This document shows, one piece after another, positions 47,061 through 64,000 of a stretch of DNA of 64,000 bases. The notes under the pieces were generated by a model. It made no database searches, had not been told where the DNA came from, and was given only the letters and a program-made list of their open reading frames with translations. Position 1 is the first letter of the stretch. Every line of letters begins with the position of its first letter. Position numbers and translations under genes: made by a program. This stretch comes from Nitrospinaceae bacterium (GTDB lineage: Bacteria; Nitrospinota; Nitrospinia; Nitrospinales; Nitrospinaceae): the NCBI GenBank assembly GCA_965223665.1, contig OZ245011.1:2624001-2688000 (forward strand). The letters are read 5' to 3'.

Positions 47061-47171
47061 ATTATTTATTTACCTTTTGGATTTTTATATTTCCGGTTTG
47101 AATGCTAAATCAAATTAGTGTAGTAGTGGGTTCAAAATATTGCTCATTGTCCAATCATTAGAGGAGGGTTT

Positions 47172-48800: not shown

Positions 48801-49178
48801 ATGATTAAGGCCGGTTCTTACATGAGTCACCCTGTATTGACAACAACACCTGATGTCCTTGCCCATGAAGCCGTAGAAGAAATGCAGCAGAATAATGTAG
48901 GATCTATTCTGGTAGAATCTAACGGAGAGTATGTTGGGATATTTACGAAAACGGATTGGACTCATAAGTTCCTTAAAGGGGGCGACCCTAATTCCATTAA
49001 AGTTTCATCCATGATGGTGTCACCAATTATCCGTGTTGAAAAGGATGAGCCGATATCGAAAGCCAGTGAGTTAATGGAAGCCAATAAAATCCGCCATATT
49101 GCTGTAACAAATGAAGGGGAAATTGTAGGAATTTTGTCAGTAAAGGATTTAGAAAAGTGTTGGATAAACTGGAAGTGA
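48801..49178 (+). CDS. CBS-pair protein
   Basis: NVGSILV...VGIFTKTD; IRHIAV...VGILSVKD. Confidence 0.88.
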   Translation: MIKAGSYMSHPVLTTTPDVLAHEAVEEMQQNNVGSILVESNGEYVGIFTKTDWTHKFLKGGDPNSIKVSSMMVSPIIRVEKDEPISKASELMEANKIRHIAVTNEGEIVGILSVKDLEKCWINWK

Positions 49179-49244
49179 TTAAGGCTTACCTTTAAATCGG
49201 GAAGACTTTCATAGTCTGGTCAAATTTTATTCGCCAGAAATACC

Positions 49245-49967
49245 TTAAGTCACACTGGGTTTGGTTCTTTTAGATAGATTATAATCATTAAGCATCCCCG
49301 TGATAGTGTATTCATTCAAGTCCGACCATTGCTCATATGCTTCAGCGACAGCAAATCTTAAATCTTCGCGCACATTCGGGCAATAAACCTTGTCCACCTG
49401 CTTGGCTAAATCCTTTAAGGAACCCAAGTGCCCGGTAGGGACGGCCACAATCATTTGGCTTGGTCCACATTTACGAATGGCTTCCACTGCCACCTGCATG
49501 GTCACCCCCGTGGCCAGGCCATCATCCACAATAATCACAGTTTTGCCGTTACAATTTGGAAACGGCAGACCTTTTCTAAACACCTGATTCCGACGTTGAA
49601 CCTTGTGTCTGGTTCTTTCTTTATCCTCTTTGACCTCCTCATCACTAAGACCTAAGTTTGTGATAAACGATTGCCTGACCATTTCGGTACCATCAAAAGC
49701 TATCGCTCCATAACCTAATTCAGTGTTCCAATGCGGGGTTATCTTATTTGCCACTGCAATATCCAAGTTTAAGCGAAGTAAACGTGCAATGACTAACGCT
49801 ACTGGAACCCCCCCTGACGGTATTCCTAAAACCAAGGAATTGCTGTCCAATAAGCCTTCGAACATACTTCCGAGCACCTCCCCGGCATGTTCACGGTCCC
49901 TAAATACTTTCGGACGATTTCGTAGTTCAGGCACATCAATTATCACTTTTTCTGTCTCTAAATTCAT
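49245..49967 (-). CDS. Phosphoribosyltransferase family protein
   Basis: FRDREHAG, GIPSGGVPVA, VIIVDDGLATG PRPP-binding motif. Confidence 0.88.
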   Translation of the reverse strand: MNLETEKVIIDVPELRNRPKVFRDREHAGEVLGSMFEGLLDSNSLVLGIPSGGVPVALVIARLLRLNLDIAVANKITPHWNTELGYGAIAFDGTEMVRQSFITNLGLSDEEVKEDKERTRHKVQRRNQVFRKGLPFPNCNGKTVIIVDDGLATGVTMQVAVEAIRKCGPSQMIVAVPTGHLGSLKDLAKQVDKVYCPNVREDLRFAVAEAYEQWSDLNEYTITGMLNDYNLSKRTKPSVT

Positions 49968-50076
49968 TACTTCCCGCTTCTTTTTCGGATTAAAACGTAA
50001 ATTCCTTCTTCTTTAAAATGATATTTGATACCTTAGAGTTGATAACAGGCTTCCATTCGCTTAAAAATTTTTTCTT

Positions 50077-50484
50077 TTACATGTGCGCGGCAAACTCAGG
50101 CTCAATGAGGCTTCTTAGAACATCACCTCTAGAAACAATTCCCACCAGCTTATCATCCTTAACAATGGGCAGTCGGATGATATTAAATTCCTCCATGATT
50201 TTAATAAATTCATCAACGGTTGCATCTTCCCTTGCAGTCACGACATCTCGGGTCATAATATCTTTGGCGGTGATTTTAACCAATTCATTTGTGTCTTTCA
50301 CGGCCTTTAAAAGATCAAGTTCTGTGATAATTCCTACAAGTTTTCCTTCCTCATTCGTAACAGGCATTCCGCTATAAAGACCCGTCATTAACTGTAGGGG
50401 CACATCCCGAGCAGAAGCATTTTCTCTCGCTGAAATCACGGGTCTTGTCATTATTTCTGAGGCCTTCCTGGTCAACTTAATCAT
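50077..50484 (-). CDS. CBS-pair protein
   Basis: SGMPV...LVGIITELD; IRLPIV..KLVGIVSRGD; RBS AGGAGG. Confidence 0.88.
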   Translation of the reverse strand: MIKLTRKASEIMTRPVISARENASARDVPLQLMTGLYSGMPVTNEEGKLVGIITELDLLKAVKDTNELVKITAKDIMTRDVVTAREDATVDEFIKIMEEFNIIRLPIVKDDKLVGIVSRGDVLRSLIEPEFAAHM

Positions 50485-50710
50485 AGCTCACCTCCTTTTT
50501 TTCATGATAATATTTGAAGGACAAATTGACCCTCGCACGATAGGCGACTACCTTTCCATCTTCTACCTTCATATCAAGCTTGGATATTTCAGCGACTCTA
50601 AGGTCATCCAATGTTTTACCAGCGGTTTCAATCGCATTTTTAGCCGCATCTTCTCATGAAACTTCGCTTGCCCCAACAAGTTCAATAATTTTATAAACTG
50701 TATCACTCAT
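50477..50710 (-). pseudogene. Dodecin (flavin-binding) with an in-frame TGA
   Basis: Manual translation MSDTVYKIIELVGASEVS*EDAAKNAIETAGKTLDDLRVAEISKLDMKVEDGKVVAYRARVNLSFKY...; TGA at 50654-50656 where homologues commonly have Trp; absent from the ORF track. Confidence 0.85.
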
Positions 50711-50881
50711 GAGATTCCTTTCAGTTAAAGCTTCCAAAAATACAAGGGCTATGATATTTAAAAAAATGTGTCTTCAGTTCACTAGCACACTCTAATATTT
50801 AAGATCGTTAGATGAGAAAAAATATTCCCAGGTAGAGGTGATATTGCTCAATCGGGGTTCAGCAGAGTCGGGGATGAGGTA

Positions 50882-50978
50882 TTGGCGGGGATACAACCAA
50901 ATAAATCTTGTAAATCCAATTTTATAAATACCTTAACTAAATTCAACTTTTTCATCTTGCCCCCCAAATTGCCCCTAA
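50882..50978. mobile_element. att-like site copy B; probable left end of the satellite-like element
   Basis: TTGGCGGGGA...TGCCCCCCAAATTGCCCCTAA; 88 bp from the last element gene; homologous to 39946-40040. Confidence 0.6.
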
Positions 50979-51065
50979 TTTTTATATTGCCATTTCCTAC
51001 AAACCCAACCAATAGTTTAAATTCCAAAACAAAACTCTAGCCTATTAATTTAAATTTTGTTCATC

Positions 51066-51665
51066 TCAATATTTCAAACCCAGTTTCTGACTGATTCCTC
51101 TTAAAGAAATATCTATGTAGGCATCATGCTTACAGACTAATTTTTCAAAAGTTTTCCAATGCATTCCCTTAGGTTTCCAGCCGTTTCCATTTAGAAAACC
51201 CGGCTCCCATCCCAGTTTCTCCCTTATTTTATTCAGCTTTCTAGCGGCGCGGTCATAACTGACTTCCTGCTGGCTGGCATAGGCAAGCTCATAACAATGT
51301 CTACAAGCAAAAACGGTTTCTCCATAAAGGATAGCCACACGGCGTTCACACCCTACAGCAGGACAAAGAAACCAGGGTCGTTTTCCCCCAAAGTGACAAG
51401 AAGTCCAATCTAAATAAACAGAATACTTTTTATGCTGCCATTTGTCTTCATCCCATCTTTTATGATTGTAAGTCAGAATAATTCGGCCCGGTTCTACCCG
51501 AACTTGTATCGTTGCCACCGTTTCACCATTGCGTGACCAGTTCCAGGAAAAAGACTGATGCCCGGTCAACAACCCTCGGCGTTTCCAATCCCGGATATCA
51601 ATTTCCCTGTAATCATCGGTCGTATCCTTTTTATCCCATCTTTGCCCACTGCCATATCCACCCAT
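51066..51665 (-). CDS. Conserved hypothetical protein of integrative elements (Zn-finger-like)
   Basis: MGGYGSG start, GGKRPWFLCP..C.RRVAILY, FACRHCY.LAY.SQ, KPKGMHWKTF. Confidence 0.75.
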   Translation of the reverse strand: MGGYGSGQRWDKKDTTDDYREIDIRDWKRRGLLTGHQSFSWNWSRNGETVATIQVRVEPGRIILTYNHKRWDEDKWQHKKYSVYLDWTSCHFGGKRPWFLCPAVGCERRVAILYGETVFACRHCYELAYASQQEVSYDRAARKLNKIREKLGWEPGFLNGNGWKPKGMHWKTFEKLVCKHDAYIDISLRGISQKLGLKY

Positions 51666-51789
51666 AACTCCTCCTTTTTATCGAAATCATTAAGGAACTT
51701 TACCTTTTGACGTTGACTTTATTGCTTTTCAATGAACTATTCAGGTACTAATGAGACCTCATTTTTAGGTGCTATTTATTTTCGTTTTT

Positions 51790-52296
51790 TTAGTCGTTTT
51801 CCTTACTTTCCGACCCAATATCGCCCCCAAAAAGAACTTTGCACTCTAAAATCGTTCTTAACTCTTCCGGAGCGAGTGTTTTAACATCCAATTCAACAAG
51901 GTCCTTCTCCGTGAACACCGGCAAACTTTGATCGGGCACACATCGGGCAACAGATTTATCCTTCGCCAAATACAAGGCTTGATTCAAAATGATCGAGTAA
52001 ATTTTGACATACCCCAGCCTTCGATAATCTTCAATGGATTGCCTTAGCTGCAATACCCTTTTGTTTTTTAACACCAAGGCCAGCGCTTCCTCCTCAGCTT
52101 TTTCCCGGGAGAAATTTACTTTTTCAGAAGTCATCAATTGAACATATTCCTCGTAAATTTCTCTATCCACCTCGTTCAACAATGGCCAAGGTAGTTCATC
52201 ACTGTTTGATGAAACGACCAAAGGTTCTCGTTTTATTTCCTCTAAAGGTAAGGACGAGTCCTTCACCTGGCTGGCTAAATTCAAATATTTGCCCAT
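51790..52296 (-). CDS. Hypothetical protein
   Basis: 168-aa ORF in the element operon with RBS AGGAG. Confidence 0.6.
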   Translation of the reverse strand: MGKYLNLASQVKDSSLPLEEIKREPLVVSSNSDELPWPLLNEVDREIYEEYVQLMTSEKVNFSREKAEEEALALVLKNKRVLQLRQSIEDYRRLGYVKIYSIILNQALYLAKDKSVARCVPDQSLPVFTEKDLVELDVKTLAPEELRTILECKVLFGGDIGSESKEND

Positions 52297-52320
52297 GGAA
52301 TTTTTTTCTCCTAACTGGAA

Positions 52321-52391
52321 TGCGAAAAAAGAGAATTAAGCGAAAAAAGTCCTTGAATCAAAGTTAATTCGCATTTTTCGCTTTTTTCGCA
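52321..52391. repeat. Convergent 9-bp iteron-like repeats (candidate replication origin)
   Basis: Plus strand TGCGAAAAA-AGAGAATTA-AGCGAAAAA; minus strand TGCGAAAAA-AGCGAAAAA-TGCGAATTA. Confidence 0.55.
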
Positions 52392-53758
52392 TCCCCTTTT
52401 TGTAAAAACCACCGTTCTACAGGTCGGCCACCACTACTCTCGACTTTGTAAAACGCAACTCCTTTTTCAAACAAAGCTTCCAGGGCGCGACCGATTTGTT
52501 GCGAATCCTTATGTCTTTTAAACAAAGCACTGATTTGGGTACGCGTCATTCCATTCGGGTAGATGTCCAAGGCCCTTTTTATTTCATCGGCAACCGGGTC
52601 ACCGAGCGATTTCCCAAACACAAACCCCGCGGAAGCCTCGCAATATTCCCAAATCGCTAAAGCGGCGAGCAAATGCTCTTCTTTTATTTTTGAGGAACAA
52701 TCCAACAGAGCATAGATCATTGCCAATCGCATCACCTGGGCTTCCGCTCTTGCAATGGCCGCACCCAAAAGACCCGGTTTTCCTTCACTCAGTTCAGGAT
52801 AAACTTGTGCCCAGGTCCTGCGTGCGAAATCATCTCGCTTGAGTTCCCCCATCACTCGTGCTTCGTTCAAAGTCTCTCTTAGTCTAGTGATCAAAGGATT
52901 TAAATCGACTTCGTGCAACCGTCCCCCTTCAGGTAGAACTTTGGATCGCTTGACACACACCAATAAAAACCGATTCACGAATCCGTTACAAAGCTCTGTA
53001 GCTGTTATCTGACGAAACAATTCATCCTTGGTGATATGCCCCACAACGGAAATATGAGGTTCGCTGGCTCGAGCCTGACTGTTTTTGGTCAAGGTCCGCA
53101 AATCACGTCCATCCCATGCGTTTCTTACAATAGGGGATAACGTATTACCCTCACGATTCAAAACTTTCAAAGGCGAGGCAAACTCTGATTCCAGTATCAA
53201 AGCCCGTTTGTCTTCAATACCCGGGTCAATTATTTCATCTTCATAACCAACGATTCTCTTTTTTTCTCGAATCGCCACTTTCTTCTTAATTTCATCACGA
53301 ATCAACCAGATCAATCCTTCTCCACTGGAGAGACCGGAATGAATGCATTGCTTGGACCAAGGGTCATCGACCACAGAAAACAAACTCTCAATTTGTCCCC
53401 AACTGGTACCTTTGCGTCCTTTTGCCGAGGCTCCCACCATAACAGTGAACAGGTTTGGATAATGCTTGTCGGCTTCCGCTTTAAAATAAGCTCCACGACC
53501 GACACAATTTCCAAACGCAGTCAGCAGTTGAAGCAACAAGGAAGCGGGGTCAGCTTCCGTATGCGGCTCCAGGGTTTTAACAATATCTCCGGCCAATCCG
53601 TAATAAGCCATGTCCTCGAGAGGAGACGGCCAATCAATCCTCAAACCGTTTTCACTCTGACCTCCCGATTCAGGAGTAAAGGATTGGGCAGAGTTTTGAA
53701 AAGGGTTATCAGGTGAAATGGTGTCTGAAACTGCTGGGCCAATATTATTTTCAGCCAT
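52364..53758 (-). CDS. DUF3987/YfjI-like replication protein (P-loop helicase-like)
   Basis: PHTEADP, VGASAKGRKGTS, GLSSGEGL, ESEF, RNAWDG, NGFVNRFL, C-terminal wHTH with GGRP; start MAENN. Confidence 0.75.
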   Translation of the reverse strand: MAENNIGPAVSDTISPDNPFQNSAQSFTPESGGQSENGLRIDWPSPLEDMAYYGLAGDIVKTLEPHTEADPASLLLQLLTAFGNCVGRGAYFKAEADKHYPNLFTVMVGASAKGRKGTSWGQIESLFSVVDDPWSKQCIHSGLSSGEGLIWLIRDEIKKKVAIREKKRIVGYEDEIIDPGIEDKRALILESEFASPLKVLNREGNTLSPIVRNAWDGRDLRTLTKNSQARASEPHISVVGHITKDELFRQITATELCNGFVNRFLLVCVKRSKVLPEGGRLHEVDLNPLITRLRETLNEARVMGELKRDDFARRTWAQVYPELSEGKPGLLGAAIARAEAQVMRLAMIYALLDCSSKIKEEHLLAALAIWEYCEASAGFVFGKSLGDPVADEIKRALDIYPNGMTRTQISALFKRHKDSQQIGRALEALFEKGVAFYKVESSGGRPVERWFLQKGDAKKAKNAN

Positions 53759-54773
53759 AAACCACCTCCGTTTGACGAAGAACATCTAACCAATCCACCG
53801 AGTTTTTATCATTAGGAATATCCATAGGAGGCACACAGATTTTGATACGCGTTTTCTCCTCTTCCCAAAGCCGGTTTCCAAGGATTTGTGCTGCCCGCTC
53901 CCCTCTTCCATTCCTGTCTTTATCGCAGGCGATCCAGATTTCGTTTGCGTTAGAAGGAACAACCACTTTTTCAAGACCGGTTGCAGTCAGACAAGCCCAG
54001 ACTGGGAAATCGGACAACTCATGAATGGCGATTGCCGTTTCAACTCCCTCGGTTAGGACCAAAGGATGGTCTGCGCGCACCTCATAAAGTTTGACAGCCC
54101 CTCCGTTGATCGACTGAGCGCATCGATATGTTTTCTTGGGACTCTCAACAGGCGCTTTGCCCAAACCATCCGGGTCCAACCAAATGCGATGAATGCCAAC
54201 CAGCTCATCCTTAAAAGTGATCGGTGCCACAATAGCGGGATAAGCTCGCATAAACTTTTTTCCTGAAAAATAGGAAAGGCTGGAACAAAAACGTAAACAG
54301 TTCGGAACCACACCACTCAATCCGCGATATTCTAAATATTCAGATATGCGGCCCGGATCAGAGGAGGTTTGTTTAAGAATGGTTTTTACTTTTTCACTTC
54401 TCTTTTTAATTTCGTAACCTTTATTGAATGAAATTCTGGTCAACGGTTTGGAATGACAGGAAGGAGAGCCATCCTGATCCAATCCAAGATAACGGGCAAC
54501 TGCCTCCAACGTTTCAACAAAGTTCCAACCCTTCACCCACATCAACAAGCTGATTCCGTCATGGAAGGGTCCGTTTAGGTTGCAAACCCCTCCACCCTTC
54601 TCATTGGCATCAGGAAACAATCGAAACCCGTCTTTCTCGCCATGACATAAACAGCGAACATGTCGCCCTGGCTTTTGACAAGCATCATCCAATTCAGGTG
54701 CCAACGCGCAAAATATGCTCAGCCAGTTTCCCGAAGCGCACTCTTTCAGGTCATCAATATTGATTTTATTCAT
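53751..54773 (-). CDS. P4-alpha-like Zn-finger + Toprim primase
   Basis: RHVRCLCHG.KDGFR, DGISLLMW, YLEYRGL, GIHRIWL, TEGVETA, IACDKD, DWLD. Confidence 0.85.
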   Translation of the reverse strand: MNKINIDDLKECASGNWLSIFCALAPELDDACQKPGRHVRCLCHGEKDGFRLFPDANEKGGGVCNLNGPFHDGISLLMWVKGWNFVETLEAVARYLGLDQDGSPSCHSKPLTRISFNKGYEIKKRSEKVKTILKQTSSDPGRISEYLEYRGLSGVVPNCLRFCSSLSYFSGKKFMRAYPAIVAPITFKDELVGIHRIWLDPDGLGKAPVESPKKTYRCAQSINGGAVKLYEVRADHPLVLTEGVETAIAIHELSDFPVWACLTATGLEKVVVPSNANEIWIACDKDRNGRGERAAQILGNRLWEEEKTRIKICVPPMDIPNDKNSVDWLDVLRQTEVVYG

Positions 54774-54888
54774 TTTTATTCTCCTTCCGCTTGGATACCC
54801 AAAGAGCAAACCAAATGGGCAGCCATCCCCAAACCGCTAAAGTCCGGATGATTTCTTTCAACCATTGAAATAGTTTTGAGCAGTTCAT
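54766..54888 (-). CDS. Small hydrophobic protein (40 aa) between alpA and the primase
   Basis: MNCSKLFQWLKEIIRTLAVWGWLPIWFALWVSKRKENKNE*; ATGA overlap with the alpA stop and overlap with the primase start. Confidence 0.55.
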   Translation of the reverse strand: MNCSKLFQWLKEIIRTLAVWGWLPIWFALWVSKRKENKNE

Positions 54889-55103
54889 CTGTTCTGCCCT
54901 CCATCCTCATTCAGTTCCTTACGGCTCGCTTCAATTTTTTTGGCTATCCATTCATCAATTTCTGATTCGATCCATCCAACCGCACGATCTCCAAGAGATA
55001 CAGGAGGCGGAAAAAATCCTTGAGACACTTTTTGATAAATTGAGCTACGGGAAAGTCCTGTGCGGTGTTTGACTTTTGGAAGTCTTAAAATTCGATTTTG
55101 CAT
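54885..55103 (-). CDS. alpA: AlpA family excisionase/regulator
   Basis: RILRLPKVKHRTGLSRSSIY...FPPPVSLGDRAVGWIESEIDEWI. Confidence 0.93.
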   Translation of the reverse strand: MQNRILRLPKVKHRTGLSRSSIYQKVSQGFFPPPVSLGDRAVGWIESEIDEWIAKKIEASRKELNEDGGQNR

Positions 55104-55340
55104 TATTAGTCTCCATTAGGATTTATTAAACATAATGGAACCAATTTAGTTGTGCGATTTGGGCGAAGGAAGCCCCCCGAAGCGAAAGTGGAGATTTCTG
55201 AAACCCTTATCAATACAGGGTCAAAAAATTAATTTTGGGAAAGTTTCTGTTGGAGAAGAAAAGTAGAAAATTGTTAAAACTTTTAATAATAAAGGTTTGC
55301 GGTAACTTGAATTGGGCGTAAATTTTCCGCCCAACTTTTT

Positions 55341-56120
55341 TTATTTTTTCATGTTTTTTCGAATGGTTTCCGAGCTATAGCCTTGTCCGATAGGCATCCT
55401 GGAAATCTGAATAGCGCACCAATTATCCGATTGCCCTGGATTCTTTCTCTTGATTTTTCGATATTCAGTTCCCCAACCGGAATGTCTTGTCTTTGTATCC
55501 TGTTTCCGAGCTTCACGTTTAATGACTGATGGTTGATACTGATTGGAAGGGGGTGAATAATCTACAAACTTTAAAATTTTCTTAAGATTGACTTGAATTA
55601 AGTTTTTTTTAACAGTAAATAATTCAATCAATGGACTAGAAGCGTTAGACGCTTTCAAAGAAACCGGAGCTTGACAATCCAATTGGAGAAGACCAGACTT
55701 TGTCTTTCCTTGGTAGTTTCCTAAATGAATCGTTCCGGATTTTTTATCTTTTTTGGGTTTCCCTTTGATTCCCAGTGAACGGTTAACCCATCGCGCCACT
55801 TGATCTTGGGTGAGTTTCCATTGTTGCAGCATCTCCTGAGGAATAGGGATGCGTCCCATATCATCCCGGTAATCACAGGCCACATAAATTCGTGTAGGTT
55901 GACCATTTTTTGTTTGAGCATGCACTGGCATGAAACAGTTTTCTTCACATCCTGGGCAAACTACTGACTTAGCAAATAATGCTGGTTTAATCCATCCCTC
56001 ATTCTGAAACAGTTCAATGGCACCCTCTGGCCACCGTTGGACCTGGTCCCAGGAAATTGTTTTGTCTCCACTCTGTTCTAATCTTAAAATCAAATCTTCC
56101 AAAACATCTTCAAGAGTCAT
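55341..56120 (-). CDS. Hypothetical protein with Cys cluster and C-terminal HTH-like region
   Basis: CPGCEENC...YVACD; basic C-terminus ending SSETIRKNM; ATGA coupling to the upstream gene. Confidence 0.7.
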   Translation of the reverse strand: MTLEDVLEDLILRLEQSGDKTISWDQVQRWPEGAIELFQNEGWIKPALFAKSVVCPGCEENCFMPVHAQTKNGQPTRIYVACDYRDDMGRIPIPQEMLQQWKLTQDQVARWVNRSLGIKGKPKKDKKSGTIHLGNYQGKTKSGLLQLDCQAPVSLKASNASSPLIELFTVKKNLIQVNLKKILKFVDYSPPSNQYQPSVIKREARKQDTKTRHSGWGTEYRKIKRKNPGQSDNWCAIQISRMPIGQGYSSETIRKNMKK

Positions 56121-57307
56121 GCAGCATTCTCATCATTTTGTTCTTCTTTTTTTATGGGTTCAATTCCAGAGTCGATCAACATTTTTCGTATAATCAAATC
56201 CCGACCATCATGACGTAAGGCACACCAATTGGGATAACTGATCTTGAACCTTCGAGTATGACTTCTTGTTTCGGGGTTATGGACAAAATTAACTTTGATC
56301 TCTGCTTGAGACACATGAAAAGGAGGCAAATGGAGTTGGTCTATTAAATCAAAAATCGCATTTCTGTCATAGCTTGGATCAGCTTCCACAGTGACTCGCT
56401 TTTTATTTCCAGTTTTCAGACTCAATCGAAGCTGAGTGATCATCACTTCATCAATTCCGGAATCTATAGAATATTTAAAAGAAAAGTTCCTGTCCACTAA
56501 GTCGTCCAAATCATAAACAAGTTGATTCGCACCAAATTCATCGAGTTCATCCATTCCCAAAATAGATTTGGCAAATATCTGTTGTAATACGGGAACCGAC
56601 TTGGTGTTTCTGGGAGCATAAATATCTAAAGAACCTTCCACCTGTGTATAGACGAAAATGATTTCAAAGGCAGGATGACGTGCTTGAGGGGATAATGAAT
56701 TACGCACCCACTCAATACTGGACTGCGCAAAATCTTCCGGGTAGGCAAAAAAATATTCCTTTTCATGCCGACGAAAAACATCCACCATACAGTTGCGACC
56801 TCTTCCCTCTTTTTTATAAAAATGATCACTAATGGCCTGCGATAATTTTTCAATGTCCCCTTCTTCCACCTTTGGTGGCAGGTCCGGTAAATCATTTCGC
56901 TTCTTCCATTTCGAAACCGAAATACTATCCGAATGTAAAAATCCCCTACCCCCGGACCAATATCGGGGATGCTCCAGATAGGTCCACATCACTTTTCCAT
57001 GGAACCCCTCAATTTTTGCTATTTCTTTCAAAAACTCGGAATCTTGGTGAAAGTCAGCTTCATCCGATAGCGCGGTCACTCCCCCTTGACAGGCCATGGT
57101 ATCAATATCCTGAAACTCCGCTTCCATTTTCGTCTGTTTCTCCGGAGGCAAGGCAATAAAGGCCTCAAAGATTGGGTCTATCGTAGTTTCGTTCAACTCT
57201 TCAAAGTCGATGTCTTCCAAAACATTTTGCTTAACTTGAAAATATTGAGCGAGGAAACGATTGGGAACTTGCCGAAAAAACTGTTTATGTGAATATTGAC
57301 GAGCCAT
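56117..57307 (-). CDS. Conserved hypothetical protein
   Basis: Long ORF, probable start MARQYSHKQFFRQ at 57307 (ORF extends to 57355). Confidence 0.75.
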   Translation of the reverse strand: MARQYSHKQFFRQVPNRFLAQYFQVKQNVLEDIDFEELNETTIDPIFEAFIALPPEKQTKMEAEFQDIDTMACQGGVTALSDEADFHQDSEFLKEIAKIEGFHGKVMWTYLEHPRYWSGGRGFLHSDSISVSKWKKRNDLPDLPPKVEEGDIEKLSQAISDHFYKKEGRGRNCMVDVFRRHEKEYFFAYPEDFAQSSIEWVRNSLSPQARHPAFEIIFVYTQVEGSLDIYAPRNTKSVPVLQQIFAKSILGMDELDEFGANQLVYDLDDLVDRNFSFKYSIDSGIDEVMITQLRLSLKTGNKKRVTVEADPSYDRNAIFDLIDQLHLPPFHVSQAEIKVNFVHNPETRSHTRRFKISYPNWCALRHDGRDLIIRKMLIDSGIEPIKKEEQNDENAA

Positions 57308-57446
57308 TTGTGCATTCCTTATGAGGAATTTTTCATGTAGTATACCCTTATCCATTAGAATTTCGCAAAAAACTAAAAAAGTTCCATTTACTTTTTTGGA
57401 AATCTCTTCACAAATTAATTTTCATATTTAATGTAGGTGAAAAATT

Positions 57447-59681
57447 ATGGAGAAATTTTTGAGTGAAAACCTGAAGAAGAACACAATTCTTGCCCACGTC
57501 TTAAAAGACTCTTCAGAAAAATGGATTGAACATGATTTACTAGAGCATTTAGTTTGTGTTGGAAAACTTGCCAAAAAATTTGCCGATAAATTTAATAATG
57601 GCGATTGGGCTTATTTAGCTGGACTTTGGCATGATTTAGGCAAATACAATCCCAAATTTCAAAGTTATATCAAAATCAAAAGCGGATACGATCCAGATGC
57701 ACATCTTGAAACTAATCCTGGCAAAGTCAACCATTCGAGTGCGGGTGCCTTGCACGCGATAGAAAAATTTGGGAAAAAAGGGAGAATTCTTGCCTACCTC
57801 ATTGCTGGGCACCATGCCGGGTTAGCTGATTGGTATTCAAAAAATCAAGGAATTGGATCGCTATCAAGTCGGTTGAATGAAAAGAAACATTTAATAGAAA
57901 CTCTTTCAGTCACTCCCCCTTCAAAAATCTTAAATCAGGAATTTCCCACCTCTAAACCTAATACATCATCCAGACATATCCATTTGTGGATTCGTCTGCT
58001 GTTCTCATGTTTAGTAGATGCCGATTTTTTGGACACCGAGCAGTTTATGGATTTGGAAAAATCAAAACTTCGCTCCAATTTCCCCCATCTTTCCCTGCTA
58101 TTAAATCAATTCAACCAATATATGCAAAAAACCTTTTCTAAGGCATTATCCAGCCCTGTCAATAAAATACGATCAAACATTCTTAAACAATGCAAAGAAA
58201 AAGCATTAAATCCTTCGGGAATTTATTCTCTTAACGTTCCTACGGGTGGAGGAAAAACTTTATCTAGCCTAGCCTTTGCATTAGAGCATGCCATTCATTT
58301 AAAAAAAGATCGAGTTATTTATGTAATTCCTTATACAAGCATTCTGGAACAAACTGCAGATATATTTCGTAACATTTTTTCTGAAGGTGTAGTTGAACAC
58401 CATAGCAATCTCGATTCAGAAAAAGAATCTCCCAAAAGTCGATTAGCCTGTGAAAATTGGGATGCTTCTATCATCGTAACCACTAATGTACAATTTTTTG
58501 AATCTTTATTTGCAACTCGAACCAGTCGCTGCCGCAAACTCCATAACATTATTAACAGTGTTGTCGTTCTGGATGAAGCTCAATTGTTTCCCACGGAATT
58601 TTTAGACCCCATCCTTTCAGTTATTAGTGAACTTTTCAATAATTACAAAGTTAGTTTCCTCATTTCTACAGCCACACAGCCCGTTTTTAAGGAACAAATA
58701 ACTTTCGATTATCATTTTAAGGGTTTACCACGGATAGAGGAAATCATTGAAGATCCAATCAAACTCCATGAATCTCTTAAGCGGGTACAAGTAAACCATT
58801 TTAATAATTTACAAGCACTGCAGAATTGGGAAGTCCTTGCCAAACCATTGAAACAACATGAAAAAGTTTTATGTATTGTCAATACCCGGCGAGACTGTCG
58901 TACTCTTTTTCGTTTAATGCCAGAGGGAACCTATCATCTTTCCGCTCTCATGTGCGGGGAACATCGCTCAAAAATAATTTCTGAAATAAAAGAAAAACTC
59001 ACCCAAAATTATCCCATCCGAGTTATCAGCACACAACTCGTGGAAGCGGGTGTGGATTTTGATTTTCCCGTGGTTTATAGAGCGCTGGCAGGCTTAGACT
59101 CCATAGCCCAGGCCGCCGGTCGTTGCAACCGGGAAGGGTTATTACCGTATGGAACGCTTATGGTTTTTGTTCCCCCAGGAAATAAACCCCCGACCTTTTT
59201 GAAAAAGCAAGTTTCCACTGCTTTACAAATCATTAACTCCAATACCGGCGAACTTTTATCTCCCCAAAACTACGCACAATACTTCGAGCACATTTATTGG
59301 AAAGCACCTAATTTGGATGCAAAAGGGATTTTGCAAGAATTAAAACCCGGTCAAGACGGAGAAGTTCAATTTCGAACCGCCGCACAAAAATTCAAACTCA
59401 TCGAAGACGATTTTCAAAAGCCCATTATTGTTATCTATCGCAATGAGGATTTAATAAATCAATTACGAGAAAAAGGACCAGAACGAAAACTTTTGCGTTC
59501 ATTACAGCGTTACGTAGTTAACATTCAAAAAATTGCCCACGACCTTTTATTAAACAAAGGAGATATTGAAGAACTGCATCCAGGAATTTTTGTCCAAATC
59601 AATCCTGGTTCTTATGACCAACAATTTGGTTTTGTTGGAGACATACCCGAGGCTCATGATCCAAATGATTATATGTTTTGA
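57447..59681 (+). CDS. cas3: CRISPR-associated HD nuclease/helicase Cas3 (type I-C)
   Basis: HDLGK, HHAGL, DADFLDT, PTGGGKT, DEAQ, STQLVEAGVD, QAAGRCNREG. Confidence 0.95.
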   Translation: MEKFLSENLKKNTILAHVLKDSSEKWIEHDLLEHLVCVGKLAKKFADKFNNGDWAYLAGLWHDLGKYNPKFQSYIKIKSGYDPDAHLETNPGKVNHSSAGALHAIEKFGKKGRILAYLIAGHHAGLADWYSKNQGIGSLSSRLNEKKHLIETLSVTPPSKILNQEFPTSKPNTSSRHIHLWIRLLFSCLVDADFLDTEQFMDLEKSKLRSNFPHLSLLLNQFNQYMQKTFSKALSSPVNKIRSNILKQCKEKALNPSGIYSLNVPTGGGKTLSSLAFALEHAIHLKKDRVIYVIPYTSILEQTADIFRNIFSEGVVEHHSNLDSEKESPKSRLACENWDASIIVTTNVQFFESLFATRTSRCRKLHNIINSVVVLDEAQLFPTEFLDPILSVISELFNNYKVSFLISTATQPVFKEQITFDYHFKGLPRIEEIIEDPIKLHESLKRVQVNHFNNLQALQNWEVLAKPLKQHEKVLCIVNTRRDCRTLFRLMPEGTYHLSALMCGEHRSKIISEIKEKLTQNYPIRVISTQLVEAGVDFDFPVVYRALAGLDSIAQAAGRCNREGLLPYGTLMVFVPPGNKPPTFLKKQVSTALQIINSNTGELLSPQNYAQYFEHIYWKAPNLDAKGILQELKPGQDGEVQFRTAAQKFKLIEDDFQKPIIVIYRNEDLINQLREKGPERKLLRSLQRYVVNIQKIAHDLLLNKGDIEELHPGIFVQINPGSYDQQFGFVGDIPEAHDPNDYMF

Positions 59682-59721
59682 TGAGCCTTAACATAGAAAT
59701 CATTCTCAATAAGGAGGGACA

Positions 59722-60378
59722 ATGAGTACTTTTTGTCTTAAAGTGTGGGGCGATTACGCGTGCTTCACCCGCCCTGAAATGAAAGTAGAGCGAGTCTCTT
59801 ATGATGTAATGACACCCTCGGCAGCAAGAGGAATACTGGAAGCCATACTTTGGAAACCGGCCATTCACTGGGTGGTCACCCGAATTGATGTCCTCAAGCC
59901 CATCCAGTGGTTTTCCATCAGGCGAAATGAGGTGGCTTCTGTCATCAGCAAAAGAAACGTTTCACAGGCAATGAAATCCGGCAAAAAAGATTTAGCGATT
60001 TATGTAGATGAAGATCGCCAACAAAGGGCCAGCACACTTCTGCGTGATGTTGCCTATTTGATTCACGCTCGATTTGACCTGATAAACCCAGGCCCAGAAG
60101 ATACGGAAGGAAAATTCTTGGGCATGTTTGAGCGCCGCGCATCCAAAGGGCAAAGTTTTCACCGGCCCTACCTGGGAACTCGTGAATTTGCCGCCCAGTT
60201 TGAATTGATTCCCAAAGACAACCCCTTGCCAAAACCCATCGACAAAACGGAAGAACTGGGTTGGGTGCTTTACGATTTGGATTATGAAGATCATTACCGG
60301 CCTCGATTCTTTAAAGCCCGGTTGGAACAGGGAAGAATGACAATCCCTGCCTGGAACAGTGAGGAGGTGCGCGGATGA
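59722..60378 (+). CDS. cas5: Type I-C Cas5 (Cas5d)
   Basis: ACFTRPEMKVERVSYDVMTPSAARGILEAILWKP, RRNEV, PYLGTREF. Confidence 0.96.
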   Translation: MSTFCLKVWGDYACFTRPEMKVERVSYDVMTPSAARGILEAILWKPAIHWVVTRIDVLKPIQWFSIRRNEVASVISKRNVSQAMKSGKKDLAIYVDEDRQQRASTLLRDVAYLIHARFDLINPGPEDTEGKFLGMFERRASKGQSFHRPYLGTREFAAQFELIPKDNPLPKPIDKTEELGWVLYDLDYEDHYRPRFFKARLEQGRMTIPAWNSEEVRG

Positions 60379-62122
60379 TTTTACAAGCTTTGAACGAATA
60401 CTATGAAAGAAAATCAAAGCTGCAAGATTCCGGCTTGCCTCCTCTCGGTTTCGAATGGAAAGAACTTCCCTTTCTTATCGTAATTGGTGAAAAGGGACAA
60501 TTTATAGATATTGAAGACACTCGAGAAAAAGAAGAAAAGAAAAACAAGACTAAATCTTTTTTAGTACCACAGAGTGTTAAAAAATCAGTCAATATAGCAG
60601 CAAATTATTTTTGGGGAGCGATTGGTTACGCTTTGGGCAAAGACAATAAAAGCAAACCAAAGCGTTTGCTTGAGATGCACCAAGCTTTTTTGGATCTCAT
60701 ACAGTCCAGTTTTCCAAATCCTCAGGAAGAGAAAGGAGTGAATGCGCTTTGGTTATTTCTGAATTCATCCAATAAAACAGAAACCTTTAAACATCCCTTA
60801 TGGAAGGAAATGCTTGAGATCAGCCCCTTCATTTCTTTTCGCCTCCAATCAGAGAATTTGTTGATTTGCCAGAGAGAAAAAGTTCGCGAAGCTTGGCAGA
60901 ATAAGAACCAAGCAGAACTTGCAAAAAAACAACTTTGTCTCGTAACAGGAAATTACGGTGAAATCGAACGCATTCATCCCTCCATAAAAGGTGTAAGAGG
61001 CGCCCAGTCTTCAGGCGCAGACATTGTTTCTTATAACAAACCTGCCTTTACTTCATTTAACAAAGAGCAAGGAGACAATGCCCCTATTAGCCAATTAGCT
61101 GCTTTTTGCTACACCACTTCTTTGAATTATCTTTTAAGAAAAAATTCTCCACAAAAATTGCCAAATTGGAGATGCGACTACTGTTTTTTTGGGCGGATAA
61201 AGAACATCGAACAGAAACTCTATTAAGTGAATTGTTTGAGGAGTCACCTGATGATCCCGACCGAAATGCTCGAGCAGTCGAAAGTCTTTATAGTTCTCCA
61301 CATACTGGTGCACTACCCCTTGAAGAAGATAATACCAAATTTTATGTTCTCGGTTTATCGCCCAATGCCGCACGTCTCTCAGTTCGTTTCTGGCACGTCA
61401 CCACTGTTGCTGACTTGGCCAAAAACATCAAACAACATTTCGAGGATATTTCCATTATTCACTCTCCACAGGAAAAAAAAGTTCTTTCTTTATTCCGGCT
61501 TTTAGTGAATACGGCCGCATTAGGTAAATCCGAAAACATCATTCCCAACCTTTCAGGTGAAACCATGCGCAGTATATTGCAAGGTACCCCTTACCCAAGA
61601 ACTCTACTGCAACAGGGTATTAATAAGATGTCGTGCCGAGCAATCTTCCAGCGAGAAAAATGTAAATTATCCTCGAGCGGCTTTAATCAAGGGCTGCTTA
61701 AACCGAATCATTAGAAATTTTTCAACCGCAAGAAAAGGAGATCACCGTGTCATTGGATACCAGCAATCACAACACAGGTTATTTGTTGGGCCGCTTATTC
61801 GCTGCTCTGGAAAAAATCCAGGAAGAAACCCATCCTGGAATCAACGCCACCATTCGAGATCGATACTATGGTGCAGCCTCTGTAAGACCAAGTATGGTTT
61901 TTTCTTCTCTCTTAAAACTTAAAAATCATCATGTCTCCAAATTGGAACACCAAGGACGTAAAGTGTTTTTTGAAAAGCTTTGTGGGGAAATTATTGATGG
62001 AATTAAAAATAATTTTCCATCCGTTCTCAATTTTGGAAGATCAAGGCCGTTTTGCCATTGGCTATTACCACCAACGTCAAGAATTTTTCAAAAAACACGA
62101 AACAGAAGAAAAAGGAGAATAA
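60375..62122 (+). pseudogene. cas8c: Type I-C Cas8c (Csd1), split by ~5 frameshifts
   Basis: [66 protein letters not shown] spread over several frames. Confidence 0.9.
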
Positions 62123-62124
62123 TT

Positions 62125-62986
62125 ATGAGCATCGAAAATCGATATGACTTTGTTTTGTTATTTGATATCAAAGATGGCAACCCCAATGGCGACCCTGATG
62201 CTGGAAATCTGCCGCGCCTGGACCCGGAAACAGGCCACGGCCTTGTGACTGATGTCTGCCTCAAAAGGAAAGTGAGAAACTATGTCCAAATGCTTAAAGA
62301 ACAGCAAACTGGTTTTAATATATTTATAAAAGAAAAAGCTGTTTTGAACCAATTAATTGATAGTGCTCACGAACAACCAGAAGTTAAGATAAAAGAAAAA
62401 GGAGATAAAACCGAGGCGGCTCGTAAGTATATGTGTGAACAATTCTATGACGTTCGGACTTTTGGAGCCGTAATGTCCACCGAAAAAATGCTGGTCAAGT
62501 TCGCGGGCCGATCCAGCTTTGCTTCGGCAGAAGTTTAAACCCAATTTTTCCCTATGGAACACTCCATCACCCGCATGGCAGTAGCGACTGAAAAAGAAGC
62601 AGAAAAGCAACAGGGTGATAACCGCACCATGGGAAGAAAGAATACTATCCCTTATGGACCTGTATCGAACCCATGGGTTCGTATCCGTTCCATTTGCCAC
62701 CCAAACCGGCTTTTCCGAAGATGATCTTTCCTTATTTTTTGAAGCTTTAAAAAACATGTTTGATCATGATCGGTCTGCTTCCAGAGGAGAAATGGCAAGC
62801 CGACGACTTATCATATTCAAACATAACGACAAATATGGCAATGCACACGCTCATGAATTGTTTGACCGGGTTCAGGTTGAGCTAAAAGATAAATCCAAAC
62901 CTCCACGCAATTTTGATGATTATGAAGTAACACTCGATGAATCCAATCTTAATGGAGTTTCGATTGATAAAGAAAGAAGCTTTTAA
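62125..62986 (+). pseudogene. cas7: Type I-C Cas7 (Csd2), split by ~3 frameshifts
   Basis: [44 protein letters not shown], then (frame-shifted) [30 protein letters not shown]. Confidence 0.9.
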
Positions 62987-63709
62987 TGGAAAATTCCTCA
63001 ACATCTTTATTTTCCGAAGAAGAGTTACTGCCCATTTCGGCGTTGCAGCATTTGGTGTTTTGCGAGCGCCAGTGGGCGCTCATCCACTTGGAACAGTATT
63101 GGCAGGAGAATCCATTAACTCTGGAAGGCCAGTTCCTGCATCAAAAAACCGATGAAAACCAAACTGAAGTCAAAGGTCCCCTGCGCATTGCGCGGGGGCT
63201 GCGGCTTCGTTCTCTGAAGCTCGGGTTGATTGGCCGTGCCGATGTCGTCGAATTTCATCGCGTTCCATCAGTCGAATAAAAAATTAATGTCCTCAGCCAG
63301 CCTTTCCCTCAAAGGAGCCGCCGGTCTCTGGCAGCCTGTTCCTGTAGAATACAAACGCGGTCGCCCCAAGTTTTTAAATTGCGACAAAGTCCAACTCTGT
63401 GCTCAGGGAATGTGTTTGGAAGAAATGCTGCACGTTTCTATCCCGAAAGGATTTATTTATTACGGTAAAACCCGTAAACGGCTAGAAGTTCCGTTCGACT
63501 CCTCGTTAAGGGAAGAAACCGGAACACTTGCAAAACGCTTGCACGAATACACGCAAAAACAATTCATGCCCAAAGCTCAATATGAAAAAAAATGTGAGAG
63601 TTGCTCCTTACTTGACCACTGCATGCCCAAACAATTAGATCATAAAGGAGAATCCCAAAAATATCTGCAACGGCAAATTCATTCCCTTCAGGAAGACTCA
63701 GGAGAATAA
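62986..63709 (+). pseudogene. cas4: Cas4, one frameshift near 63266
   Basis: ISALQHLVFCERQWAL, ADVVEF, then PVEYKRG, QLCAQ..CLEEM, KKCESCSLLDHC. Confidence 0.9.
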
Positions 63710-63713
63710 CTCA

Positions 63714-64000
63714 ATGAAAAAATTATTGAACACACTTTATATAACGCAGTCGGAAACCTATCTTTCTAAAGAAGGCACAACAATACGAATTGAAAAAAAC
63801 GCCGATCCTCCATTAAAAATTCCCATCCACAATCTGCAAAGCATCATCTGCTTTGGGTCCGCAACGCTTTCGTCTCCATTGCTGGCTTTATGCAGCGAAC
63901 ACAACGTCAGCGTCGCTTTTTACACCGAATGGGGAAAGTTTCAAGCTAGAGTTCATGGTCCCGTTTCCGGGAATGTTTTGTTGCGCCGCGAGCAATACCG
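63714..64000 (+). CDS. cas1: Type I-C Cas1, 5' part (runs off the window)
   Basis: Manual translation MKKLLNTLYITQ..YLSKEG..IPIHNLQSIICFG..GKFQARVHGPVSGNVLLRREQY. Confidence 0.93.
   Translation, partial: MKKLLNTLYITQSETYLSKEGTTIRIEKNADPPLKIPIHNLQSIICFGSATLSSPLLALCSEHNVSVAFYTEWGKFQARVHGPVSGNVLLRREQY

Follow-up and report, generated by a model that had tools for sequence, protein, structure and literature searches.

The window, a stretch of 64,000 nucleotides from the genome of a marine Nitrospinota-like bacterium (G000), carries near its right end the genes of an integrative element and, next to them, a type I-C CRISPR-Cas operon. Both run past the window edge; extrapolated window coordinates equal the L001 coordinate plus 62,000. 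The layout given in the preliminary description, with the element genes on the minus strand and cas3-cas5-cas8c-cas7-cas4-cas1 on the plus strand, was recovered at the positions claimed; that description makes no mention of the frame breaks which the assembly shows in cas8c, cas7 and cas4. The sister species used for comparison is referred to as G001. The features are as follows.

50886–50975: left, ssrA-distal terminus, matching the end of the G001 island (L017:3043–3132) at 87% identity over 90 bp
50957 and 50969: TTGCCCC motifs in the left terminus
51066–51665, minus strand: orf199, conserved zinc-ribbon-like protein (CP..GC ... CRHC)
51790–52296, minus strand: orf168
52364–53785, minus strand: DUF3987 protein, helicase-like half of a P4-alpha-type replication protein (Pfam DUF3987, 3.1e-14; PHROG helicase/primase families)
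53751–54809, minus strand: DNA primase with Zn ribbon, DUF7146 and Toprim (Pfam matches; phrog_510 "DNA primase", 3.1e-50)
54885–55103, minus strand: alpA, AlpA-family excision regulator (Pfam Phage_AlpA, 1.2e-22; PHROG "excisionase and transcriptional regulator")
55341–56120, minus strand: orf259, conserved partner of orf412 and alpA, Cys-rich (CPGCEENC)
56117–57307 (57355 with the alternative start), minus strand: orf412, 396 aa when read from the conserved MARQY start (phrog_37634, 1.5e-25)
57308–57349: TATACT -10-like box and palindrome ATTCCTCATAAGGAAT, upstream of orf412
57350–64000, on to 70718 (extrapolated; L001:8718): cargo slot, 13.4 kb in all
57447–59681, plus strand: cas3 (HD nuclease and helicase), intact (TIGR01587, TIGR01596 and Pfam Cas3 domains)
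59722–60378, plus strand: cas5c, intact (Pfam Cas_Cas5d, 5.1e-40)
60375–62122, plus strand: cas8c (Csd1), Csd1 pieces in successive frames, five frame changes in the assembly
62125–62986, plus strand: cas7 (Csd2), three frame changes in the assembly
63010–63709, plus strand: cas4, one frame change near 63240 in the assembly
63714–64000 (first 95 codons), on to 64739 (extrapolated; L001:1714–2739), plus strand: cas1, type I-C (TIGR03640 best match on the in-window part)
64711–65064 (extrapolated), plus strand: cas2 (Pfam, 7.5e-27)
65065–65245 (extrapolated): leader
65246–70393 (extrapolated), plus strand: CRISPR array, 78 repeats of 32 nt, 77 spacers, 68 of them unique
70684–71892 (extrapolated), minus strand: int402, P4-type tyrosine integrase of 402 aa, intact, 92% identical to the G001 integrase
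71883–72359 (extrapolated), minus strand: int158, arm-DNA-binding domain only, overlapping the int start by 10 nt
72364 (extrapolated): GGGGCAA motif beside int158
72525–72883 (extrapolated), minus strand: ssrA tmRNA gene (ARAGORN; tag ANDYEVAVAA), 3' end facing the island

The integrase that had been expected beyond the window was located past the array, followed by ssrA, and 166 bp separate the 3' end of ssrA from the int158-int402 pair; a neighbouring tRNA or tmRNA gene had also been anticipated. E. coli CP4-57 is likewise an ssrA island, in which the tmRNA gene is followed by an integrase and, further in, by alpA. Judged from its description, it shares with the present locus the order ssrA, integrase in the same orientation, alpA, and the Pfam AlpA family is named after CP4-57.

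At the opposite end, G000 and G001 sequences are unrelated to the left of 50886, and synteny between them picks up again at 72492. The att-like end proposed at 50882 needs to be divided in two: a true terminus exists at 50886–50975, but no att direct repeat was found. A copy of the ssrA 3' end of at least 13 nt is absent from the left end, the whole island lacks any 25-nt copy with up to 8 substitutions, and only GGCGGGG(A) is common to the ssrA 3' end and the left end. Of the suggested core and GGGGCA arm sites, GGGGCAA/TTGCCCC motifs are present at both ends, at a window-wide count equal to chance level, but there is no clear core repeat. Among assembled contigs of 20 kb or less, neither an excised circle nor an empty site was seen. 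An extra 5.6 kb (45243–50885) is missing from G001 at the same site, so the locus is composite.

The slot was delimited by comparison with the sister species. Identity between G000 and G001 ends at 57349 and restarts at 70719, and a G001-like contig from another sample departs from the window sequence at precisely 57349. Between orf412 and cas3 lie 91–139 bp, depending on the orf412 start codon, with no integrase among them, as had been noted. The 744-aa cas3 ORF aligns end to end with relatives, the whole cas1 matches Pfam Cas_Cas1 at 5.6e-103, and the cas1 and cas2 ORFs are intact; cas2 and an array had been among the features to look for downstream. The G000 genome has one PF01867 match, i.e. 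a single Cas1, and the island is the site of its only CRISPR-Cas system and adaptation module. Given that 76 of the 78 repeats are identical, the array looks young or maintained. Duplicated spacer blocks were observed (23–27 = 32–36, 48–50 = 51–53, 8 = 42). The proposal that the spacers are aimed at helper or competitor phages found no support, as the protospacer search linked none of the spacers to a phage or a family element.

The family-defining gene is orf412; of its 926 homologues at E ≤ 1e-5, not one bears a functional name, and a fold comparison gave no match. Its upstream sequence is conserved between G000 and G001. The adjoining orf259 keeps this position in all four related genomes and in most metagenome loci. 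The AF2 model of orf259 (pLDDT 87) had no Foldseek match in PDB or BFVD, and winged-helix-like matches were only at background level (Z 4.5–5.6); the protein is probably DNA-binding. The alpA, primase and DUF3987 genes are intact ORFs, the latter two being fused into one 776-aa ORF in G030. No match to orf199 was found in Pfam, NCBIfam, PHROG or PADLOC, nor a PDB sequence match; its homologues in 10 other family loci are 37–65% identical with invariant Cys columns, and it lies near the distal end of islands with a primase-type replication module. For orf168, the same four libraries gave no family match and tblastn no homologue in its own genome or related loci. The P4-like integrase foreseen in the preliminary description has all catalytic residues, and R-K-HxxR-H-Y is invariant in 7/7 aligned family integrases; by this measure it looks active. 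Homologues of int158 occupy the same position in G092 (56%, 159 aa) and L057 (34%).

Among 102 genomes of the order queried with orf412, five were positive, G000 included. The family backbone is a P4-type int, a variable slot, a fixed orf412-orf259-alpA set, a replication module and a conserved distal end; in this island a small arm-binding ORF precedes int, and the replication module consists of primase and DUF3987. The G001 island lies at the same ssrA, with orf412, orf259 and alpA 93%, 72% and 71% identical at the amino acid level, besides the integrase and the terminus listed above. Its slot, bounded as in G000, contains PDC-S18, a type IIG restriction-modification (RM) enzyme and a 159-aa ORF, and a cas3 query found no match in this species. 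A cas operon standing here without the element genes, which would have spoken against cargo, is thus not what the relative shows: G001 keeps the backbone and has other defence genes in the slot. In the three remaining genomes, the order and orientation of int and orf412-orf259 are unchanged; ssrA adjoins in two, and the third contig stops before it. Their slots hold PD-T4-1 with an SNF2/REase-III-like gene (G030), a DUF4402/PapD pilus operon (G091), or nothing but a 163-bp gap (G092).

A metagenome scan retained 80 orf412 loci, 12 of them with an integrase upstream of orf412 in the same orientation and slot lengths from about 0.25 to 8.9 kb. Slot content was scanned for 10 proteins from six metagenome loci: RM systems were found in three, L078 and L100 (both type I) and L046 (a type IIG/I fusion), and the slot proteins of L057, L051 and L056 had no PADLOC match. 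No cas genes were detected in the 89 other family loci examined.

The region from 50886 to ~72524 (extrapolated) is most likely a single integrative mobile island of ~21.6 kb at the tmRNA gene 3' end, a member of an unnamed widespread family whose variable slot here holds CRISPR-Cas. It might instead be a genuine phage satellite of the PICMI or P4 kind that depends on a helper phage for induction and packaging and whose CRISPR-Cas gains spacers against non-helper phages or competing elements; we consider this a serious alternative, though an unlikely one. PICMI satellites of Vibrionaceae (Barcia-Cruz et al. 2024, PMC10803314) have roughly six genes and insert beside fis; in the part of that paper used here, they have three mandatory markers, all found in the island: integrase, AlpA and a DUF3987-type primase. 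They need no capsid-remodelling genes, which the island also lacks, and their small gene iolg overlaps the integrase gene as int158 does. Both occur in marine hosts and have one hotspot of accessory anti-phage systems, including type I/II RM, but the PICMI hotspot lies between prim and fis and that of the island between int and orf412. The island also differs in its ssrA site, its length and the extra fixed pair orf412-orf259; no CRISPR-Cas is among the PICMI defence systems named in that part of the source.

P4-like satellites (Rousset et al. 2022, PMC9122126; de Sousa et al. 2023, PMC10085698), as far as the portions of these papers used here describe them, share a P4-type integrase, AlpA, a P4 alpha-kind primase/helicase and an integrase-proximal anti-phage hotspot (int-psu in P4; PMC9122126; PMC10803314). 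A phage connection is also suggested by orf412, which is a PHROG family with about half of its Atlas clusters viral-labelled, and by five family loci in IMG/VR. However, in two of these (L029, L030) orf412-orf259 adjoin inovirus and not tailed-phage genes. Searches of Pfam and PHROGs link none of the ORFs to terminase small subunits, capsid proteins, Psu/Sid/Delta or other hijacking families, epsilon is missing as well, and the island is about twice the P4-like median of 10 kb (PMC10085698). P2/P4 hotspots are said to be without CRISPR-Cas and type I RM owing to capsid size (PMC9122126), whereas slots of the island family hold both: CRISPR-Cas here, type I RM in relatives. The lack of spacer matches to phages also counts against this reading. 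Neither a helper phage nor excision or packaging of the island was seen. The initial designation as a phage satellite found no support: as no capsid or packaging gene is present, the locus is best described as a satellite-like defence island with CRISPR-Cas cargo, its satellite status not proven.

It is less probable still that the island is a decayed, immobile remnant fixed in the chromosome, with cas8c, cas7 and cas4 as pseudogenes. In favour of this, the assembly has nine frame changes within 61160–63260, no att repeat was found, and decay is seen elsewhere in the family, where G030 has a TAG within orf412 and an SNF2 gene that is split. Most of these frame breaks are assembly errors, however: short-read contigs contradict six of the nine, the other three being two in cas7 and one in cas4. 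In cas8c, contigs of run X1 are one base shorter at 61161, 61184, 61615, 61718 and 62031, and removal of these five bases yields a 580-aa ORF that aligns over 1–601 of 603 with reference Cas8c. The cas7 change at 62659 is also contradicted by X1 contigs, and all contig depth agrees with the missing base at five of the six contradicted places; a compensating pair around 62480–62547 in cas7 puts a stop in frame at 62536. The intact ORFs of cas3, cas5, cas1, cas2, int, alpA, primase and DUF3987, the near-uniform repeats and the preserved integrase residues likewise argue against decay. On the other side, backbone identity to G001 (82–87% nt) resembles that of the chromosomal flanks (87–89%), about equally diverged; this is equally compatible with recent mobility and with a long stay at the site during which modules were exchanged in situ.

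That an ordinary chromosomal cas locus merely adjoins a chance alpA/primase integration, outside any mobile element, is very improbable: the operon and the element genes do run in opposite directions, there is no att site that divides or links the two, and cas3 homologues exist in seven other genomes of the order, none with an orf412 match, but the cas locus is enclosed in the island, since integrase and ssrA lie on its far side, int stands directly beside orf412 with nothing between in G092, L096 and L103, the corresponding chromosomal site of G001 carries different genes within identical borders, and cargo is also opposite to int in G001, G030 and G091.

CRISPR-Cas on islands has been described elsewhere. 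In the Acinetobacter baumannii "archipelago" downstream of ssrA (Rubio et al. 2023, bioRxiv 10.1101/2023.09.20.558655), a type I-Fa CRISPR-Cas island, proposed to act against same-site competitors, is among alternative islands that include RM. The subtype (I-F), the phylum and the proposed vehicle, a phage-plasmid, are different, and the part of the preprint used here describes no int-orf412-alpA-primase backbone. Vibrio islands and Tn7-like elements (McDonald et al. 2019, PMC6360697) carry complete type I-C systems with arrays in mobile or island DNA absent from sister strains, but the carriers there, where one can be identified at all, are transposon-rich regions or Tn7-like elements, and "AlpA", "primase" and "satellite" are absent from the text in the portion used. 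VEIMEs (Eppley et al. 2022, PMC9618062), compared by description from part of the source, are integrative elements of marine origin that encode tyrosine integrases, AlpA and primase/helicases; they are defined by recovery from virus particles, unlike the present island, and may overlap with the orf412 family.

By analogy with AlpA/Int islands and PICMI/P4-type elements, AlpA and Int, perhaps with int158, would excise the island, primase-DUF3987 would replicate the excised circle, and transfer between cells may occur by hitch-hiking, with a helper phage or otherwise. Cargo could be swapped by recombination in the conserved flanks (the 3' end of int on one side, the promoter of orf412 on the other), as known elements suggest. 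The CRISPR-Cas cargo would provide adaptive immunity for host and island against phages and rival elements. In this organism, the slot of an ssrA island holds CRISPR-Cas where related islands hold restriction systems, other genes or nothing.

The CRISPR-Cas locus, of type I-C, was found in an island of 21.6 kb and about 17 genes (window 50886 to ~72524), which lies at the 3' end of the tmRNA gene ssrA. The window corresponds to C1:2624001-2688000 in an assembly of 4.35 Mb (six contigs, 38% G+C), and coordinates above 64000 were extrapolated as the C1 position minus 2624000. L001 denotes the downstream 20 kb (window coordinate = L001 coordinate + 62000), and ORFs such as orf412 or int402 are named by their length in amino acids.

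Components of the island
orf199, orf168, DUF3987 protein, Zn-ribbon/DUF7146/Toprim primase, AlpA, orf259 and orf412: minus strand; ORF listing and family scans
cas3, cas5, cas8c, cas7, cas4 and cas1 (first 95 codons): plus strand, divergent from orf412; ORF listing and family scans
Remainder of cas1, followed by cas2, an AT-rich leader (181 bp) and the 78-repeat array: L001, downstream of the window; array on the plus strand
int402, 402 aa: L001, beyond the array; arm-binding, central and catalytic domains
int158, 158 aa: L001:9883-10359 (window 71883-72359, extrapolated), minus strand; arm-DNA-binding domain alone
ssrA (tmRNA gene): 166 bp beyond int158; 3' end faces the integrase

The ORF listing and family scans bear out the gene map of the preliminary description, which had read the cas operon as possible cargo of a satellite-like element with its integrase past the window. 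That reading is supported: cas2, the array, a P4-type integrase and the tmRNA gene were all located downstream, and the one item missing there was a clear att core. As a P4-type integrase island, the locus has a complete integrase, a position directly 3' of ssrA and different content in relatives; no tRNA genes were found within the 64-kb window. The residues R-K-HxxR-H-Y are present in int402 and invariant in all seven aligned family integrases. The start of int402 is overlapped by 10 nt by int158, homologues of which occupy the same position in G092, a genome from a different family of the order (intact, 159 aa, 56% identity), and, more weakly, in the metagenome locus L057 (34%). Because it is kept at this position in both, int158 seems to be a conserved gene, not the stump of a dead integrase; by analogy with the PICMI gene iolg, it is perhaps a directionality or regulatory factor.

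The sister species G001, the only same-genus genome compared, is syntenic with the source genome (G000) up to window 45242 on the left and again from 72492 on the right, 33 bp outside ssrA. The 90-bp terminus of the G001 island is 87% identical to window 50886-50975. An att-like end had been proposed at 50882; a conserved terminus does begin 4 bp away, and the att direct repeat was not found. No direct repeat of the ssrA 3' end of at least 13 nt occurred in 30000-72359 (blastn-short), and a fuzzy search of the island for the ssrA-end 25-mer with up to 8 substitutions returned none above chance. The sole sequence common to the ssrA end and the left end was GGCGGGG(A), at 50884-50892. GGGGCAA was rejected as an integrase arm site, with 11 occurrences in the window versus 10.2 expected; its pairing at both island ends alone is suggestive. 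Joints in mapped short-read contigs had short sides of 22-45 nt and seem to be cross-matches to DNA of other organisms.

Several features were observed outside the terminus. Contigs of three runs (X1, X2, X4) skipped 63 bases at 50728-50790, and another X1 contig matched the assembly, which suggests a minor length polymorphism within the population. The 5.6 kb between the terminus and the chromosomal flank (45243-50885) had no counterpart at the G001 site and encodes a DUF6745 protein, a 388-aa HTH/sugar-binding-like protein, CBS-domain proteins and a phosphoribosyltransferase. The segment has paralogues on contig C5 (61-81% aa identity) and at C1:1112370-1113071 (90% nt identity), and a DUF6745 gene was also found near the G092 island; it may be what is left of an older island, or additional accessory DNA. 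At 40549-42103, immediately to the left of the variable region, six copies of a 10-nt word are spaced exactly 309 bp apart, a periodicity that indicates a tandem-repeat coding region with 103-codon units.

The G001 island lies at that genome's own ssrA and shares 92% amino acid identity with the G000 island in the integrase, 93% in orf412, 72% in orf259 and 71% in alpA. Nucleotide identity between the two islands ends at 57349 and returns at 70719, within the final dozen codons of the integrase. In G001 the same borders enclose the candidate defence gene PDC-S18, a type IIG restriction-methylase of 1355 aa and an ORF of 159 aa; like the cas operon, all three run opposite to the integrase. In a second sample of the same study, contigs tracked orf412 (~92%) and diverged from the window exactly at 57349, where their letters became those of the G001 cargo side. 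The cas locus and array (57350-70718, 13.4 kb) therefore occupy a discrete slot whose content can be swapped. At the slot border, directly upstream of orf412, are a -10-like box and a perfect 16-bp palindrome. The island backbones are 82-87% identical at the nucleotide level and the chromosomes 87-89%; such similar divergence would fit an old resident whose modules were exchanged in place.

The gene order cas3-cas5c-cas8c(Csd1)-cas7(Csd2)-cas4-cas1-cas2 with no cas6 constitutes a type I-C set (Pfam and NCBIfam). No foreign ORF family interrupts the series in these two collections, and reference I-C proteins align across the whole region. The array comprises 78 repeats of 32 nt and 77 spacers of 32-37 nt (68 unique), with three duplicated blocks. 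Its repeats end in ATTGAAAC, an ending typical of type I-C, and they cross-match arrays of I-C type on plasmids from Nitratidesulfovibrio vulgaris, among others. Signs of a live system are the identity of 76 of the 78 repeats and Cas1, whose single copy in the G000 genome lies in the island. A cas3 query returned nothing in G001; the best Cas3 within the order was on a short contig of genome G041 (57% identity), and the closest outside it, in a scan of genome contigs, came from just three loci in other phyla (48-55%).

In the assembly, cas3, cas5, cas1 and cas2 are intact ORFs, and nine frame breaks fall within 61160-63260: five in cas8c, three in cas7 (one of which puts a stop in frame) and one in cas4. 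Logan contigs of four runs from one study were mapped onto window 50501-70500, with low depth (~3-6) around the cas7 and cas4 breaks. Contigs of run X1 lacked exactly one base at each of 61161, 61184, 61615, 61718, 62031 and 62659, that is, at six of the nine breaks. All contig depth agreed at five of these places, and 5.5 of 9.1 at 61161. Contig evidence covers these six; the remaining three are a compensating pair in cas7 (~62480-62547) and the break in cas4, and cas7 fragments of other organisms cross-match there. In silico deletion of the five cas8c bases restored a 580-aa ORF aligned to residues 1-601 of the 603-aa reference Cas8c. Mis-polishing would be a plausible source of the extra bases in cas8c and cas7. 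A seeming run of cas pseudogenes can thus be an assembly artefact, and with nine indels clustered in 2.1 kb and the rest of the assembly clean, apparent pseudogenes of this genome need a read-level check.

Spacer matching, which had been suggested as a way to identify targets among phages and satellites, gave nothing convincing in any of the sets searched. Matches from the collections of phages (8 records) and plasmids (59 records) seemed to be driven by the repeats or to be no better than chance, and the best match in the source genome itself was 24 nt with 2 mismatches. The fetched orf412-family loci gave at most 12-17-nt chance matches. Across the 102 genomes of the order, the best match (28/34) lay in AT-rich intergenic sequence, had no TTC PAM and was judged to be chance.

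Homologues of orf412 were present in 5 of these 102 genomes, G000 counted. All five (G000, G001, G030, G091, G092) have an upstream integrase in the same orientation and a variable slot, and the order int-[slot]-orf412-orf259 is common to G030, G091 and G092. The series orf412, orf259, alpA runs on one strand in G000 and three of the four other genomes, the exception being G092, in which no alpA was found.

Slot content in three further genomes of the order
G030: adjoins ssrA; PD-T4-1 and a split SNF2/REase-III-like gene
G091: adjoins ssrA; five DUF4402 genes, a PapD-like chaperone and an usher-like gene
G092: empty; int-to-orf412 gap of 163 bp

The G030 copy (L021/L024) has an in-frame TAG in its orf412 homologue, and its SNF2/REase-like cargo gene is split into ORFs of 104 and 1055 aa; some family members may be decaying, or these breaks may likewise be assembly errors.

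Beyond the order, 926 orf412 homologues were retrieved at E ≤ 1e-5, the best 120 with 53-93% identity. Those with a named source organism come from several phyla, and none carries a functional name. A metagenome scan gave at least 477 orf412 relatives, of which the best 80 loci were analysed, 34 of them with at least 3 kb upstream of orf412. Among these best 80 of at least 477, orf259 follows orf412 in 67, most of the others ending too early, and 12 have an upstream integrase in the same orientation, with slots of ~0.25 to 8.9 kb. Judged from 10 proteins of 6 loci, slot content included type I RM with R, S and M subunits (L078, L100) and a 1639-aa type IIG/I fusion (L046); PADLOC gave no match for the scanned slot proteins of L057, L051 and L056. 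No cas genes were found in the 80 metagenome loci (best 80 of at least 477; 34 reach 3 kb or more upstream of orf412), the five IMG/VR loci or the four other genomes. With none in these 89 other loci, the CRISPR-Cas cargo is so far a one-off, and the slot holds mostly restriction-type defence.

The module also occurs in other settings. In a second architecture, an HTH protein and a second tyrosine recombinase of 367 aa replace the primase-DUF3987 pair (metagenome loci L074, L077, L080 and L085; G001, L017:3159-5942; G091). In several of these metagenome loci the opposite strand carries a distant integrase (~33%), and it is at that end that the tmRNA lies. In two IMG/VR loci (L029:283-8375 and L030:1-10516), orf412-orf259 is followed by inovirus genes, namely an RCR Rep, a pI/Zot-like ATPase, a pIV secretin and an integrase. 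From these neighbours, the orf412-orf259 module is therefore common to inovirus-like prophages and capsid-less islands. On the small G000 contig C3 (7749 bases), an integrase with 26% identity to int402 and an alpA homologue lie ~900 bp apart (145-2389), and this contig may be another small integrative or excised element.

None of orf412, orf259, orf168 and orf199 belongs to a Pfam, NCBIfam or PADLOC family. A single PHROG of unassigned function matches orf412, its Atlas neighbours are all hypothetical, and the best hit of a PDB profile search was a 101-aa uncharacterised protein (E = 0.0048). With its AF2 model (pLDDT 75.8, pTM 0.36), Foldseek found nothing in PDB at E ≤ 1e-3, and the best VIA Z score of 6.6 was at background. 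PDB sequence searches with orf259 and orf199 gave no match, nor did Foldseek with orf259 against PDB and BFVD at E ≤ 1e-3 (best VIA Z 5.6). The orf259 product is Cys-rich with weak winged-helix-like features.

We designate the locus a satellite-like integrative defence island. It may be asked whether it is a true helper-dependent phage satellite, which we consider rather improbable. Integrase, alpA and a DUF3987 primase are the mandatory markers of PICMIs and are all in the island; PICMIs are reported to lack capsid-remodelling genes, to carry defence cargo including type I RM and often to have an integrase-overlapping gene required for excision (PMC10803314). The co-located int, alpA and DUF3987/DUF5906 primase of the PICMI model (PMC10803314) are present, although int is 15.6 kb away from alpA because the cargo lies between. 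PICMIs sit beside fis and have around six genes (PMC10803314), unlike the island at ssrA with its 21.6 kb and ~17 genes. Of the SatelliteFinder P4-like model (PMC10085698), the integrase, the AlpA-type regulator and the alpha primase/helicase are present, the alpha function being split over the Toprim primase and DUF3987 genes. By itself, however, an integrase, alpA and primase set makes at most a 'Type C PICI', a class that de Sousa et al. treat as ambiguous (PMC10085698).

Membership of orf412 in a PHROG and the five family loci in IMG/VR favour a phage connection, but two of those loci place orf412-orf259 beside inovirus genes. Packaging or hijacking genes were absent from Pfam and PHROGs results: orf412, orf259, orf168 and orf199 did not match psu, delta, sid or epsilon/ash (E ≤ 0.01), no spare ORF of at least 50 aa is left for psu/delta/sid-type genes, and no PICI/cfPICI packaging or morphogenesis genes (terS, ppi/cpm, capsid, portal) were detected. 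P4/P2 hotspots are reported in PMC9122126 as being without CRISPR-Cas and type I RM for capsid-size reasons, and the chromosome-like divergence of the G000 and G001 backbones also speaks against a satellite.

For the integrative defence island, gene content and context suggest a possible life cycle. AlpA with Int, perhaps helped by int158, would drive excision from ssrA, and the primase-DUF3987 pair would replicate the excised circle. The products of orf412 and orf259 may regulate the alpA operon or serve as its accessory DNA-binding factors. Cargo cassettes would be exchanged through recombination between the 3' end of int and the promoter of orf412, and the I-C system would guard both host and island.

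It is conceivable, though we think it unlikely, that orf412-orf259-AlpA islands form a new phylum-spanning family of helper-dependent satellites with a hotspot free of the capsid-size limit, and that the G000 member is the first satellite known with complete adaptive immunity. If true, a satellite would carry interference genes together with cas1-cas2-cas4 and a memory of 77 spacers. As a parasite of phages, it could learn new targets, shield its host and itself from non-helper phages or rival islands, and spread memory horizontally.

CRISPR-Cas systems occur on islands, transposons, plasmids and phages. Integrase-proximal defence hotspots are already described in P4-like satellites and PICMIs (PMC9122126, PMC10803314). 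Reported CRISPR cases include I-C and other types on Vibrio islands and Tn7-like elements (PMC6360697), a I-Fa system among alternative ssrA islands of A. baumannii (bioRxiv 10.1101/2023.09.20.558655) and alpA genes adjoining I-F systems in Shewanella (PMC12887000). A search of main article texts found no published description of a complete CRISPR-Cas system in an int/AlpA/primase satellite-like island. What appears to be new is the combination of a satellite-like int/AlpA/primase island with a swappable slot holding a whole CRISPR-Cas system including its adaptation genes.

Going by the source names of close orf412 homologues, the host is probably a marine member of Nitrospinota, a phylum whose mobile elements have, to our knowledge, been little studied. 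The island belongs to a family with hundreds of members across phyla, two core genes of which have neither a name nor a known function. It provides a concrete case of CRISPR-Cas loci moving as cassettes between conserved flanks, and it raises the testable question of whether such islands excise and travel with 13 kb of cargo.
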